A DNA stretch of 64,000 bases from Thermoproteota archaeon (lineage in GTDB: Archaea; Thermoproteota; Methanomethylicia; Methanomethylicales; Methanomethylicaceae). Below, piece by piece: positions 7,113-62,708 of the stretch. The position numbers and the translations under genes are program-made. The first letter of the stretch is position 1. The number at the start of each line of letters is the position of its first letter. The DNA is taken from the NCBI GenBank assembly GCA_016882195.1, contig VGLU01000002.1:43884-107883 (forward strand), given 5' to 3'. The notes below the pieces were generated by a model. That model searched no databases and had not been told where the DNA came from. It saw nothing but the letters and a program-made list of their open reading frames with translations.

Positions 7113-7351
7113 GCTAATTCACCACAATGACGTTCAAGAGAATAAACAACCAAGATATATTTATTTCTAATATCGAGGGTTTAAGTGGCCGCCAGCTTCC
7201 ATGGCTTCCCGGACCCTCTCGGCGTCCAGTACAACCACAGACGTTTGGTGGTTTAACTGCCGTGTTCGGAATGGGAACGGGTGGTTCCCACCAACTTTGG
7301 CCGGCGTACCGCTATATAAGAAAAAGTTTTGGTTTTTAAAGTTTGCTATCC

Positions 7352-40615: not shown

Positions 40616-40746
40616 CTGTGAGTTAGTTGTAATTAATAATCACACCCTGTGAGAGAATATTGTTATCCTAAATAAAGGTTAGTGATTTATAGTCACTCAC
40701 AACCAAAAACCTTAAAACATAAAACATCATAATTAATATTAAAATA

Positions 40747-41382
40747 ATGGAAAAGGTGCCAAAGTTGAGTCTTCAGGATAGGAGCGACCGGGTCGTTGAA
40801 GAGCTCAAGGTCGAATTGGCACTGGTAAGGCGCGACTTGGTGGAAAGATTAAGGCGTATTGAAGAATACATTACATTTTTAGAGTCGGATGTAAGCCGGC
40901 TGAGGCTGGATCTCCAGAGAGTTCATGATAAACTGCAAGAAATCTCTGTTGAAAGAACAACAGGATATGTTACCAAACCATTAATTACTCCAGAGGTAAT
41001 AAGAACTCCTGCTGTAACCACGGAGGTAAAGCCGTCTAGGATAGAGGCAGAGGCGCCAGGGCCGCAGATACCAATATCACAACCAATACAACCGCAAGCT
41101 GCAAAGTCCTTGGAGAGGAAGGAGGGACTTAATCAAACAGAAGTGGCCATCATCAAGTACCTCATCGACAACCCTGGCACGAAGAGCGCCACACCAGTTG
41201 CACAGAGCGTCGGGAAAGCTAGGGAGCACGTTGCTAGGACCCTTAAGAAGCTTGCTGATGAGAAAAAAATCATCAGAGACGAGACAACATGGCCTTACAT
41301 GTACGTTGTTCCTGAAAACATCAAGAAAATTGTGCTAAGTCAGACGACTGGTGCAACTCAAACACTAGGAGCTCCATCGTAG
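40747..41382 (+). CDS. Hypothetical protein: N-terminal coiled coil, Pro/Thr-rich linker and C-terminal winged helix.
   Basis: 211 aa. Lies inside an AT-rich island. C-terminal TEVAIIKYLIDNPGTKSATPVAQSVGKAREHVARTLKKLADEKKI resembles a MarR/wHTH. Confidence 0.45.
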   Translation: MEKVPKLSLQDRSDRVVEELKVELALVRRDLVERLRRIEEYITFLESDVSRLRLDLQRVHDKLQEISVERTTGYVTKPLITPEVIRTPAVTTEVKPSRIEAEAPGPQIPISQPIQPQAAKSLERKEGLNQTEVAIIKYLIDNPGTKSATPVAQSVGKAREHVARTLKKLADEKKIIRDETTWPYMYVVPENIKKIVLSQTTGATQTLGAPS

Positions 41383-41428
41383 ATAGAGTATTGTGACTGG
41401 AACCCTGTGACAGATTGAAAAAGTCACA

Positions 41429-41854
41429 TTATTTCTTACTAAGATCCTTGATGATGTTTTCCACGTTTTTTGCAGAGATCGTTGTTACAACGCGATATTG
41501 CCAACATGACCTGTTACCATTACGCTCAAGATAGCCATTATTATAGAGTCTTGTGAGGTATGTGGATACTGTACTGGGTTTTATTGATTCGTGATATTGT
41601 TCCATATACATCAATGAAAGGTCTTTGCTCGTGAACCATGATTTACTTAGTTGGGACTTTATCAAATCAAGGATCTTGGCCATAGCCGTCTTTGTGACGT
41701 GGCTAGCTGCCGGCGGATTATGATCATCATTGGTGTTGAAGAGGTTGATGATCTGATAGAGACGTTCCTTGGAGACCGACCCACTCATGGCTACTGTGAC
41801 CTGCTCTCCATTCCCATCACAGAACTCTATTTTCAGTTTTTTCATACAGATCAC
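41429..41854 (-). CDS. Hypothetical winged-helix protein.
   Basis: 141 aa. C-terminal STVSTYLTRLYNNGYLER is a wHTH recognition pattern. AT-rich island. Confidence 0.45.
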   Translation of the reverse strand: MICMKKLKIEFCDGNGEQVTVAMSGSVSKERLYQIINLFNTNDDHNPPAASHVTKTAMAKILDLIKSQLSKSWFTSKDLSLMYMEQYHESIKPSTVSTYLTRLYNNGYLERNGNRSCWQYRVVTTISAKNVENIIKDLSKK

Positions 41855-42452
41855 TGAGTGAGTGGTTTGAATTCTCTACGGTTTCACCAGTATATGAGCG
41901 TATTGTAGTCCCCATAACGTTGTTAGAAAAGTTAAATTTGATGGTAATTATGGTTAAAAAAGGAAGATTTGCACTTCTTTCATTTTTCTGGCTTATTTGT
42001 AACGGTTTCACAGCAAATCACATGGCAAATCAAGTGATTCACAGCGTTGGAGTGGAAGTGAAGGGGTGAATTATGAAAACCTTAAAAACAATATGCACCA
42101 TGATATAGTCACAGTGACGCTATGACGGCCCTTATAGGACCTTTGATGTTAATTTATGATGATTCATTACTGAATGAACTAAGATAAAGTCACTATTACG
42201 AACGCAAAGGAAAAGTAGCTAGATTTTTTTGGATAAAAAACTCTAACATTGATGATGTCAATGGATCATCAAAAACGATGGTGCACCATGAAAAATACCG
42301 TTGATGATAGTAAAGTTTATATATCAGAGTTCATGGTGATTTTGTGAGCCTTAAATAGAGTATTGTTTAATGAACTATTTTGACAGTGTTTGATGGTGAG
42401 TTGTAACAGGGTAGTTACATAAAGTAAGCTCTAAAGCAGGCTTCCCTGTTCC

Positions 42453-42470
42453 CAGAAACACGTGTTTCTG
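42453..42470. promoter_or_regulatory. Perfect 18-bp palindrome CAGAAACACGTGTTTCTG in a noncoding AT-rich stretch. Candidate operator for a dimeric regulator.
   Basis: Seen directly. Flanked by direct repeats TTGTAACA(N6)TTACATA at about 42397 and about 42478. Confidence 0.3.
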
Positions 42471-42997
42471 CCGGATTAATTGTAACATACTTATTACATA
42501 GAATTGAAGGGTGGGGCCCTCTAAAAAGCTCTCTGGCACGATGGATCTCGATTACCGGATACCTATGGCCGGTATAAATAATGAGGGATGTTGTTGTTTA
42601 GGTGAGATCCATATAATTAGGACAATTTTAGATCAATTATTAAATTATTATGAAAATTTCCAGTGGAGGTTAATTTTACATAATTATATAAAAAAATTAT
42701 AAAAAGATTTAAATAAAGACACGCCTGCACCCTAGAAGGCCATGATAGCTCTCAGACCCCATCTTTTCGCTAGGAAGTGTATATTATTTAATATTATTTA
42801 TTTCCTATAAAATAAATAGTGTAGTTGTCTAGTAGGATCAATTTCTATAAATAGGTTGCAGTCTAAAATGCTTGAGAACTAACTCTTAAATAACTAATGT
42901 CATGGGCTCCGGCTTGGAGAAACAACAATACCAGGTCCAAAAGAAGCCTTGGGGTCACCTTCTTATAATAGATCCTCCATAGGTCTTCTGATCTTCC

Positions 42998-43297
42998 ATG
43001 TCCAAAGAGAGCTTTGAAGTGGTTCAGTTAATCGCGCAGTACATACCCAACGAACAAAGGATCTCCCTTCTGAAGACCTTACTCGAGGTATACGGGTCCA
43101 TCTATAAAACTTCCAAGGTAACAAGGATCTCGCGACCAGCTCTGTACCGGTACCTGGCATCCGACAAGAAGAGCTACCCGAACGACGAGATTACCGCCAG
43201 GTTGCTCATGGCCCTGCTAGAGATTAAGAGGAGCTGGATTAAAGATCAGCTAAGGCAACTCGCAAAGGATTTTAATGAATTAATAAATAAACTTTAA
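42998..43297 (+). CDS. Hypothetical small HTH protein.
   Basis: 99 aa. ISRPALYRYLASDKK is HTH-like. AT-rich island. Confidence 0.4.
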   Translation: MSKESFEVVQLIAQYIPNEQRISLLKTLLEVYGSIYKTSKVTRISRPALYRYLASDKKSYPNDEITARLLMALLEIKRSWIKDQLRQLAKDFNELINKL

Positions 43298-43407
43298 TAC
43301 ATTCAACCTTCCACTCTTCTAAAATTAAAATTATCACATCTGGGCGCACTAAAACTCAGGTTTATAGACCCCGTGAACCTTCTTATCAGTGGACCCGGTG
43401 TAGAAGC

Positions 43408-45954: not shown

Positions 45955-46048
45955 TGGTAGCGGGGGGTGGATTTGAACCACCGATCTCGGGGTTTCCCAG
46001 CACGGGGCATATGAGCCCCGCGGGATAACCTGGCTACCCCACCCCGCT
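45955..46048 (-). tRNA. Initiator tRNA-Met (anticodon CAT) with a roughly 16-nt canonical intron. CCA is encoded.
   Basis: AGCGGGG-TG-GGGTAGCCAGGTTATCCC-G-CGGGG-CTCATA[TGCCCCGTGCTGGGAA]A-CCCCG-AGATC-GGTGGTTCAAATCCACC-CCCCGCT-A-CCA. A1:U72 and three G:C pairs in the anticodon stem are archaeal initiator features. Confidence 0.75.
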
Positions 46049-46803: not shown

Positions 46804-48114
46804 TCAAAAGAGTCCGTGAAAGACGCCAACCTTGCCTTCCCAGGACGCCTTCTCCTGACCGAACCTCTGGAACGGCTTCGTGAGGTGCCTCATCGCCCTC
46901 GGCGGGGGGAGGTAAACCCCTGTTTTTATCCTCCTGTCGATCTCCTCCAGCACCGGTTCCTTTGCTTTTAGACCGCACCTCTTACACTGGTAGCCCTTAC
47001 CCCTCCCCTCGGACTTCATGCTCTTCCCGCACTTGGGGCAGACGGGGTTCCTGTAGGCTTCGGAAACAAGCGATAGAACCTCAAGCCTCTCCAAGTTGAA
47101 GGTGAACCTACCGTCGTTAAGAACACGGACGCCGCCGAACGCCTTTACACGGTCGCCTGGCATGAGATCTCTGACGGTGTATCTGAAGCCCCCCGAGGGC
47201 TCGTAGCCGGCAACATCGATCTCGCCCGTACCGTCCCTTATCGAGGCGATCACGTGCCCGCCCTTCAGAACCCTGGGCGCTTTGGTGATAACGCCCTTTA
47301 AAACAGCCGCCTGGTAGGGCTTCAGGTCCCTTATCAATAAGGTACGGACGAGGTGGGCGGCCGTGCCCTGGTTGCTCCTGTAAATTACCCAACGCTCGGC
47401 GCCCCTGAACTTGATCTTCTTTAGAGCCTCCATCACGACTGCGGGGTACTCGCCCCTCACGCCGAAGAGGATGGGATCGGGACCGTGCGGGGTTACCAGA
47501 AGGCGGTTCTTCTCGTAGTCAATGTTGTTGAAGGTGAGCGGGGTCGTCTCCTTGTCGAACTTCAGGACGCTATTATAGTCCACGTCACGCCTGCGCCCCC
47601 ACAGCGCCTTTCTGCGGTATATGACGAGCTCGAAGGTGTGATCCTGTTCTAAAGTGCTACCTACCGCGGCGATGGCACCCACCAGACCCAACCCGCCCCT
47701 AATGATCCGGTACTTGACGCCTGCCTTTTGGGCGGTATGAAACGCATCGTCCAGCGTGAGCACGTTGTAGAGCGCCCGGCGCCCGAACTCCTTGATGTGT
47801 GAAGGGACCTCCCCCTCGAGCAGCGCGATCCCCGGCTGGTTCTTCGGATCCTTTCGGTCCCGGTACTGCTCCGCCAGCTCGAACGCCGTGCCCAAAATAT
47901 CATCGGGAGAGCGGTCTGACATGAACCTGAGGCAGATGGCCGCATTTCCGCGAGACTTCCACGGGATGTTGGGGTTGAGCCTGATGAGGTTGGGGTAGTC
48001 CACGAACCTGCTGCCGTCCTTTGCAAGGTCTGAGATCATCAAAGCCCCGATGTAGGTCGTGCAACCCAGCTTGAGCGAGTCCGTGTCGTCCATCCCGAGG
48101 TGATAGAGAGGCAT
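46804..48114 (-). CDS. tiaS: tRNA(Ile2) 2-agmatinylcytidine synthetase TiaS.
   Basis: 436 aa. N-terminal LGMDDTDS...CTTY...LIRLNPNIPWKSRGNAA matches the TiaS kinase-like domain. C-terminal zinc ribbon (CPKCG...CKRCG). Confidence 0.8.
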   Translation of the reverse strand: MPLYHLGMDDTDSLKLGCTTYIGALMISDLAKDGSRFVDYPNLIRLNPNIPWKSRGNAAICLRFMSDRSPDDILGTAFELAEQYRDRKDPKNQPGIALLEGEVPSHIKEFGRRALYNVLTLDDAFHTAQKAGVKYRIIRGGLGLVGAIAAVGSTLEQDHTFELVIYRRKALWGRRRDVDYNSVLKFDKETTPLTFNNIDYEKNRLLVTPHGPDPILFGVRGEYPAVVMEALKKIKFRGAERWVIYRSNQGTAAHLVRTLLIRDLKPYQAAVLKGVITKAPRVLKGGHVIASIRDGTGEIDVAGYEPSGGFRYTVRDLMPGDRVKAFGGVRVLNDGRFTFNLERLEVLSLVSEAYRNPVCPKCGKSMKSEGRGKGYQCKRCGLKAKEPVLEEIDRRIKTGVYLPPPRAMRHLTKPFQRFGQEKASWEGKVGVFHGLF

Positions 48115-57959: not shown

Positions 57960-61050
<3,091 letters not shown>

Positions 61051-61208
61051 TAGTCTGGTGCCGGAAACACTGGAACCTGTGCACGGCGGTAATCGCAAGG
61101 CAGTCGTCGCCCTGCTGCGCCCTTCACTGGAGAGCTTCCTCCTCAGTTGCATGACTCATTGGACTCGATACCATCTTTCACGTATGGTTGGGGTTAGCGG
61201 GTCTTTCG

Positions 61209-62708
<1,500 letters not shown>

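Follow-up and report, generated by a model that had tools for sequence, protein, structure and literature searches.

A predicted ORB-type chromosomal replication origin of Methanomethylicia that lies apart from orc1/cdc6

Archaeal chromosomal replication origins (oriC) typically, but not obligatorily, lie next to a gene for their initiator. The archaeal origin has been defined in a review as an AT-rich region flanked by origin recognition boxes (ORBs) (PMC4010727), whose archaeal consensus is CTTCCAGTGGAAACGAAAGGGGT (PMC4153887), and canonical examples of this type are Pyrococcus oriC, Sulfolobus oriC1, and Nitrosopumilus oriC. A different organization is represented by Sulfolobus oriC3, whose specification depends on a small Cdt1-like winged-helix protein from a neighbouring gene (PMC4010727, PMC3607249) and has no ORBs or mini-ORBs (PMC4010727), and an ORB remote from an initiator gene has been listed in Candidatus (Ca.) Methanomassiliicoccus intestinalis, where ORB3 lies downstream of ftsZ (PMC4153887, Table 2). 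In the literature that we searched, no described replication origin of Methanomethylicia or Bathyarchaeota was found. Here we present a stretch of 64,000 nucleotides of contig VGLU01000002.1, from an archaeon of the Methanomethylicaceae (Thermoproteota), which in its entirety is referred to below as the window, and in it a gap at 41.85-43.0 kb between two small divergent genes, named p138 and p99. This gap fits the review definition given above, and we consider it likely, on the sequence and comparative evidence that follows, to be the origin, or one of the origins, of this chromosome.

Three origin recognition boxes in an AT-rich, conserved gap

The gap is bordered by p138 (41429-41845, minus strand) on one side and p99 (42998-43297, plus strand) on the other, with a third gene, p211 (40747-41382, plus strand), convergent with p138. 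ORBs were recognized by the dyad TCCAnTGGAAA together with a G-string, in repeated copies, and were scored with a position weight matrix (PWM) built from 110 ORBs in the gaps of other lineages, the consensus of which is TTCCAGTGGAAATAAAGGGGTG. The top PWM match in the whole window is ORB-1, a full ORB with G-string (TTGGAGTGGAAGTGAAGGGGTG, 42047-42068, plus strand), which precedes the p138 start by about 200 bp, on the strand opposite to that gene, scores 26.0 bits against a maximum of 17.7 bits in 20 shuffles, and is comparable to the published ORB TTTGCAGTGGAAATGA-AGGGGT (PMC4153887). Two further sites, ORB-2 (TTCCTAGCGAAAAGATGGGGTC, 42755-42776, minus strand, 12.1 bits), which is convergent with ORB-1, and ORB-3 (GTCCAAAAGAAGCCTTGGGGTC, 42935-42956, plus strand, 10.5 bits), just upstream of the p99 TATA box, are degenerate full ORBs. 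The counterparts of ORB-2 at the same position score 15-26 bits in other Methanomethylicia (for example, TTCCAATAGAAATAAAGGGGTC in locus L031), the orthologues of ORB-3 score 13-23 bits, with the columns T.CA...GAA.....GGGG.C invariant in alignment A1, and in the deep branches all three ORBs are canonical at 21-31 bits, the ORB-2 and ORB-3 counterparts among them reaching 21-26 bits. The dyad core alone is present in a mini-ORB at 42657-42669 (TTTCCAGTGGAGG, or CCTCCACTGGAAA on the other strand), identified by sequence match, which is retained in that position by 7 of the 18 orthologues (the window, L007-L010, L012, and L015) and is missing from it in the rest. This is the ORB-like element of a preliminary description of the window, which had placed it two bases away, at 42655-42667, and had listed no other, overlooking the far stronger full ORB at 42047-42068.

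Every one of the 18 aligned gaps contains exactly three sites of the full-ORB type, and their positions and orientations are fixed. The longest block kept in all 18 is AGTGGAAGTGAAGGGGTGAA (42051-42070), the core of ORB-1, and this is the sole block of about 20 nt common to all of them, although the p138 protein drops to 44% identity. The sites are also specific to the gap: all 25 PWM matches of at least 15 bits in 11 Methanomethylicia loci (about 200 kb in total) fall within it, and of 27 metagenome contigs carrying the exact ORB-1 20-mer, 25 represent this locus and the other two are unrelated coding matches, which also disposes of a second ORB-1-type site near orc1 in the lineage, a candidate that we had considered. 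Read from the p99 side, the predicted origin would consist of ORB-3, about 160 bp, ORB-2, about 690 bp, ORB-1, and about 200 bp up to the p138 start.

The sharp drop in GC content relative to the flanks that had been described earlier is confirmed (0.397 over 40620-43400 and 0.506 over the window), but it is uneven, as the p211 gene, at 0.47, is near the window average and the low values are supplied by the non-coding DNA. Likewise, the stretch of about 1.1 kb said to be free of open reading frames (ORFs) is indeed so: no credible ORF was found in 41855-42997, where GC is 0.350, the only credible genes of the region being p211, p138, and p99, and 42001-43000 is the lowest-GC kilobase of all 64. 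When duplex stability is expressed as nearest-neighbour free energy over 60-bp segments, the three weakest segments of the 64 kb are 42780-42839, 42661-42720, and 42599-42658, which flank ORB-2 on either side and surround the mini-ORB, and the gap accordingly combines inverted ORBs, with ORB-2 (minus) and ORB-1 (plus) convergent, with easily melted AT-rich DNA. The second and third weakest segments make up a candidate duplex-unwinding region at 42599-42720 (GC 0.15-0.23), which adjoins ORB-2 and includes the mini-ORB, and the weakest forms a second very AT-rich tract at 42780-42839, between ORB-2 and ORB-3. In the mechanism that we propose, the ORBs would be bound by an Orc1/Cdc6 initiator most likely encoded elsewhere in the genome; the convergent ORB-2 and ORB-1 would enclose the DNA of the window that melts most readily, beside ORB-2 and around the mini-ORB; and unwinding, as the low duplex stability suggests, and MCM loading would take place at this meltable DNA near ORB-2.

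The gap belongs to a conserved chromosomal block. In seven contexts of p138 homologues (44-86% identity) the same order was found, namely p99 (divergent), an ORF-free gap of 0.9-1.2 kb, p138, p211 (convergent), an HTH_3+CBS gene, HypF, DUF2070, and an RMMBL nuclease, with synteny lost only past p99. A synteny scan with one genome per species gave 25 Methanomethylicia loci, including the complete genomes of Ca. Methanosuratincola petrocarbonis LWZ-6 (CP130488.1, locus at about 1,430,076-1,431,186) and M. verstraetei LCB70 (CP186953.1, locus at about 796,103-797,177), and all 25, together with 25 further metagenome contigs, share the gene order, the gap length, and the low GC, which in the gap is always 7-15 points under that of its own locus. 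Divergence of the block proteins keeps pace with that of adjacent housekeeping genes, HypF and DUF2070 among them. Under the refuting condition that the preliminary description itself had set, conserved presence in the relatives, the region is core rather than accessory.

Correspondence with orc1/cdc6-linked origins

In other classes, an AT-rich gap of 0.5-0.85 kb lies upstream of the p138 homologue and is followed by a divergent ORF of 400-430 amino acids (aa), and all 10 such ORFs tested proved to be Orc1/Cdc6. By tblastn, orc1/cdc6 is located within the fetched DNA in 43 of 62 non-Methanomethylicia loci and is directly adjacent in 31 of the 62; an initiator gene (orc1/cdc6 or whiP) next to the gap, lacking in the window, is present as orc1/cdc6 at the orthologous locus of those 31. 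Gaps with three ORBs between the divergent p138-family gene and orc1/cdc6 occur among L032-L093, for example at L040:9184-10000 and L035:4909-5672. The orc1-linked gaps, which contain 110 ORBs in total, show the same three-ORB order and orientation as the window: the sites of L040 stand at 665(-), 489(+), and 205(-) bp from the p138 start and those of the window at 1090(-), 931(+), and 202(-) bp. The proximal ORB, about 205 bp from p138, has the same distance and orientation as ORB-1, and the distal spacing of about 160-190 bp agrees with the ORB-2 to ORB-3 spacing of about 160 bp, which matches that of Bathyarchaeia origins, so that the central interval alone differs. Judged from these sequence correspondences, the gap is the orthologue of the orc1-linked oriC of Bathyarchaeia and Nitrososphaeria, minus the adjacent orc1/cdc6 and plus a central insertion. 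The preliminary description had raised an origin and then discounted it for want of a nearby orc1/cdc6; this absence is explained because the orthologous gap in sister classes borders orc1/cdc6, and an origin has become the best-supported idea. As to its history, orc1/cdc6 would have been relocated in Methanomethylicia, the lineage-specific helix-turn-helix (HTH) gene p99 would have taken its place, leaving ORB-3 beside the p99 promoter, and a conserved non-coding module of about 0.3-0.5 kb would have been inserted between ORB-2 and ORB-1.

Compared with the canonical ORB-type origins, among which we count the predicted Bathyarchaeia and Nitrososphaeria origins (L032-L093), the gap shares full ORBs matching the archaeal consensus, their inversion around AT-rich DNA, and an intergenic position between divergent genes, and with the predicted origins of Bathyarchaeia it shares in addition the three-ORB order, the proximal distance, and the distal spacing given above. 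It differs in that p99 is found where the initiator gene would be, in that a 3- to 6-fold longer interval separates the convergent ORBs, owing to the lineage-specific module with its operator-like palindromes, and in that two of the three ORBs are degenerate in the lineage of the window. Sulfolobus oriC3 with whiP resembles the locus because small winged-helix genes flank the origin in place of orc1/cdc6, and the flanking DNA-binding proteins could share in origin function; however, the gap has three ORBs where oriC3 has none, and p138 matches winged helices of the BlaI/MecI type rather than Cdt1/WhiP, an initiator role for p138, p211, or p99 being purely hypothetical. The remote ORB3 of Ca. 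M. intestinalis is likewise distant from an initiator gene, but such solitary ORBs are single and unpaired, unlike the conserved inverted three-ORB set of the gap with its AT tracts and skew switch.

GC skew at third codon positions (GC3 skew) was taken relative to the plus strand, with correction for gene orientation, over about 10-40 kb per side, and in these local flanks it switches at the gap, the side coefficient being -0.055 (95% interval -0.089, -0.018) in the window and -0.075 (-0.111, -0.043) over eight Methanomethylicia loci with 10 kb per side, all eight of which show the change. The coefficient for 19 orc1-linked sister-class origins is -0.054 (-0.092, -0.019), of the same sign, and in both groups the best-fitting switch point is the gap. 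Gene co-orientation is uninformative, as there is no bias even at the canonical origins of these lineages.

Several points weigh against an origin at this position. The window's own ORB-2 and ORB-3 do not rise above noise in score and gain credibility only through their orthologues, and the convergent ORBs are about 690 bp apart, well beyond the 53-361 bp of canonical origins. Using tblastn, no orc1/cdc6 was detected in the 64-kb window or up to 10 kb on either side at any of the 25 Methanomethylicia loci, and the Methanomethylicia orc1/cdc6 gene was not located. The skew switch runs contrary to the bacterial rule in sign and has been calibrated only internally, against predicted rather than experimentally mapped origins. 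Both in the window and in L031, transcription of the 16S-23S ribosomal RNA (rRNA) operon is directed at the gap and would meet head-on the forks leaving it. Finally, firing of the gap is a prediction, and some archaea are reported to keep dispensable origins (PMC5663688).

Should the prediction hold, it would supply a concrete and testable origin for Methanomethylicia (Verstraetearchaeota), methanogens outside the Euryarchaeota of which named isolates with complete genome records are available (L026 and L027). It would also mean that the linkage of replicator and initiator gene can vanish in a whole class while the origin remains in place, and that origin predictors searching only next to orc1/cdc6 would overlook such a gap. 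The p138 family, being linked to oriC in Bathyarchaeia, Nitrososphaeria, and Methanomethylicia, becomes a candidate origin-associated factor, and the module with its conserved operator-like palindromes may offer a defined target for accessory control of archaeal replication.

The inserted module and the flanking helix-turn-helix proteins

The central interval from ORB-2 to ORB-1 measures about 500-750 bp in Methanomethylicia versus 53-361 bp (median 116) at orc1-linked origins, and it contains a conserved non-coding module specific to Methanomethylicia (42069-42520, core 42142-42423). The module is single-copy, blastn detecting only the orthologous place at 68-93% identity, and its spacing is nearly indel-free. 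Two operator-like inverted repeats of the form TGTAAY-N6-RTTACA stand out, repeat A (TGTAAC-N6-GTTACA, 42402-42419), which is always some 574 bp away from the p138 start, deep branches included, and repeat B (TGTAAC-N6-ATTACA, 42481-42498), 79 bp from it; the pair is retained even in deep branches, 79-83 bp apart, and the motif has 22 matches in 22 Methanomethylicia gaps versus none in 59 gaps of other lineages. These repeats had previously been described as direct repeats flanking an 18-bp perfect palindrome, and they are present as such (42401-42421 and 42480-42500), but each of them is really an 18-bp inverted repeat in its own right. The palindrome between them (CAGAAACACGTGTTTCTG, 42453-42470) exists too, yet it is peculiar to the window, with one base different in the closest relative, L007, and was set aside as the key element for lack of conservation; the A-B spacer in which it lies is likewise unconserved and neither aligns nor folds consistently (z -2.1 to +1.0).

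Elsewhere in the module, an inverted repeat TTGATGAT-N8-ATCATCAA (42249-42272) and a palindrome ATGGTGCACCAT (42278-42289) lie among recurring TGATGAT and CACCAT motifs. The recurrence of CACCAT/ATGGTG noticed in the preliminary description holds up, with five occurrences in the gap versus 0.45-0.87 expected, and TGATGAT occurs four times versus about 0.3, an enrichment of 6- to 13-fold for the two motifs; CACCAT[CG]AA has 26 matches in Methanomethylicia gaps versus one in other lineages. Such short and invariant blocks, often palindromic and constantly spaced, are consistent with an array of sites recognized by dimeric DNA-binding proteins, and the flanking HTH proteins p138, p211, and p99 would be the obvious candidates for binding it. 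More tentatively, and with appreciably less confidence than we place in the origin itself, we suggest that the ancestral origin may have been rebuilt in Methanomethylicia, the initiator gene having been uncoupled and a module of 0.3-0.5 kb with paired 18-bp palindromic operators inserted, which would be bound by the flanking HTH proteins and would provide, on top of Orc1/Cdc6, a not yet described accessory layer in the licensing or control of the origin, or else an origin-proximal centromere.

Three further conserved blocks of the gap resemble promoter elements. Putative promoters are represented by a nearly invariant TATA-like box (CTCATATAC, 41889-41898, minus strand) about 45-50 nt upstream of the p138 ATG and by another (TCTTATAA, 42961-42968, plus strand) about 30 nt upstream of the p99 ATG, immediately after ORB-3, and a TATA-like block of the form AGTGTA ... 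TATAAA ... CAGTCTA (42818-42865) consists of blocks at least 82% conserved in the 18 gaps. A GC-richer, unconserved segment at 42506-42600, common only to the window and its closest relative L007, contains GGGTGGGGCCC and the inverted repeat TACCGG-N10-CCGGTA and may be a recent small insertion.

The p138 protein, 141 aa when read from its upstream GTG, combines an N-terminal beta-hairpin-plus-helix domain with a winged helix of the BlaI/MecI type, and its family, of which 63 homologues were collected (32-100% identity), is spread over the Thermoproteota, including Bathyarchaeia, Nitrososphaeria, Aigarchaeota-type lineages, and others. The likeness to the BlaI/MecI/CopY (Penicillinase_R) repressors concerns the C-terminal winged helix and is seen both by profile (MecI, E=6e-5, with the winged-helix part alone aligning) and by fold, the AlphaFold2 model (predicted local distance difference test score, pLDDT, 76.5) giving Foldseek matches at E of about 1e-3 to MecI, RosR, and AspA. 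Against Pfam PF03965 (Penicillinase_R), the window protein scores 17.8 bits versus a gathering cut-off of 22.6, which is exceeded by the Nitrososphaeria homologues in L036 (31.9 bits) and L039 (27.6 bits). The differences from these repressors are the distinct N-terminal domain, the lack, as aligned, of the C-terminal dimerisation helices of MecI, and an association of the gene with oriC instead of a sensor protease; p138 looks like an undescribed, conserved origin-neighbour gene family.

The other two proteins are more narrowly distributed. In p211, an N-terminal helical region, probably a coiled-coil, is joined by a Pro-rich linker to a C-terminal winged helix, with weak Pfam/NCBIfam matches to TrmB, HTH_24, Csa3-HTH, and Lrs14; the full-length family is confined to Methanomethylicia, and winged-helix genes occupy its position in about 22 loci of other classes. 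The p99 protein, a six-helix HTH protein standing in the place of the sister classes' orc1/cdc6, has 37 homologues (64-94% identity), exclusively in Methanomethylicia. All three had been described as small winged-helix proteins, and three small HTH genes are indeed present, but p99 is not a winged helix: its AlphaFold2 model (pLDDT 92.4) is all-helical without strands, and its best PDB match is an XRE-type HTH at E=0.64, with no close solved relative. Derivation of p99 from a decayed Orc1 winged-helix domain was rejected (HHalign probability 0.3%), as was a relationship of p138 or p211 to Orc1, which was not significant. No similarity to Cdt1/WhiP was detected in p138, p211, or p99 by Pfam, NCBIfam, PDB profile, or Foldseek searches, and matches of the flanking proteins to the MCM winged-helix domain were all sub-threshold (E 0.001-0.09). 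In Ca. Methanosuratincola sp. GD_Cm_T35, about 7 kb separate p99 from ORB-3 (L023:1850-8850), with genes for an ABC-2 transporter, PadR, a Na+/H+ exchanger, and a prenyltransferase; these are ordinary cellular genes, and a mobile element was dismissed. An intact origin remains there with p138, which indicates that adjacency of p99 in cis is not required.

Alternative explanations and other features of the window

Instead of an active origin, the gap might be a relic or dormant one that now works as a control region, in which the ORBs and palindromes would be operators for Orc1-type or HTH regulation of the divergent p99 and p138 and replication would start elsewhere, for example beside the relocated orc1/cdc6. 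In its favour, orc1/cdc6 is not adjacent, ORB-3 directly adjoins the p99 TATA box and ORB-1 is upstream of that of p138 by about 150 bp, two of the ORBs (ORB-2 and ORB-3) are degenerate in the lineage to which the window belongs, Orc1 paralogues are known as transcription regulators (PMC9738581), and origins can be dispensable (PMC5663688). We nevertheless regard it as rather unlikely, because the skew switch at the gap, which has the sign and size seen at orc1-linked origins, requires long-term fork initiation there, because the whole class has retained the extreme AT tracts along with the three-ORB geometry, and because a pure operator region needs no 0.9-1.2 kb. The regulatory hub proposed in the preliminary description is partly right, in that the gap holds two putative divergent promoters and conserved operator-like palindromes.

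The same description had also offered an unannotated non-coding RNA (ncRNA) or a remnant integrated element, and both fare worse than a relic origin. That one or more ncRNAs, or else a protein of very small size, should be encoded by the module at 42069-42520, within the origin or next to it, is in our estimate quite improbable, even though the module's nucleotide conservation is strong and nearly indel-free over about 280 bp class-wide, a conserved TATA-like block is present (42846-42851), and the arms of inverted repeats co-change, as from TTGATGAT/ATCATCAA to TTAATGGT/ATCATTAA in L009, for such co-changing half-sites are equally expected of palindromic protein-binding sites. No Rfam family reached its gathering threshold in the window or five orthologous loci, and relaxing the limit to E = 10 added just two matches at chance level, neither of them relevant. 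Sliding RNAalifold over 12 orthologues in 120-column windows yielded consensus energies of 0 to -1.2 kcal/mol, compared with -8 to -22 for single sequences, with the structure conservation index never above 0.09 on either strand, and GC is 0.30-0.35 versus 0.58-0.65 for the rRNA and RNase P RNA of the window. Against a small protein, none of the reading frames stays open throughout the orthologues, and similarity is spread over several frames on both strands; a scan of the region for transfer RNA (tRNA) or tmRNA found none, and a C/D-box small RNA reading of the TGATGA motifs was discarded by eye for unfit box spacing. An unstructured antisense or short RNA may still arise from the module. Far less probable again is the remnant of an integrated virus or plasmid in which only regulator genes survive, as might be imagined from the low GC (0.397 versus 0.506) and from a block composed only of small HTH genes without a curated family match. 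This reading is refuted by the conserved synteny, as the genes, their order, the gap length, and the GC depression recur in all Methanomethylicia loci examined (the 25 species-level loci and the 25 contigs), with proteins diverged in step with their housekeeping neighbours; the p138 family occupies the same chromosomal landmark in other classes of Thermoproteota; integrase, tRNA target, and flanking direct repeats are all absent from the region; and the low GC is limited to non-coding DNA. Among these explanations an ORB-type origin is the one we favour.

A perfect 22-nt ORB (CTCCAGTGGAAGTGAAGGGGTG, 31 bits) was encountered in an unrelated organism, at L113:883-904 and L118:2003-2024, inside an ORF of 886 aa without a Pfam match; L113 also contains, 5 kb from the ORB, an Orc1/Cdc6 gene with an upstream gap devoid of ORBs. 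Contigs identical to that of the window are present in several JGI and SRA metagenome assemblies, JGI 3300020222 being one, and a Ca. Verstraetearchaeota metagenome-assembled genome provides the best named protein match. The window also carries the 16S-23S operon, RNase P RNA, 5S rRNA, and tRNAs. The 16S-23S operon is on the p99 side of the gap, 15 kb off in the window (57973-62707, minus strand) and 5 kb off in the deep-branching L031 (L031:1-4841, plus strand), where RNase P RNA follows it directly, and the 5S rRNA gene (7187-7308, minus strand) is unlinked from it, about 50 kb apart. An intron-containing tRNA (45955-46048, minus strand), whose anticodon ARAGORN left unassigned and reported as 'cata', is found about 750 bp from the gene of TiaS, the tRNA-Ile2 agmatidine synthetase (46804-48114, minus strand), and may be the CAU tRNA-Ile2 substrate beside its own modifying enzyme. 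Relatives show this pairing again (TiaS in L007, L008, L011, and L012).

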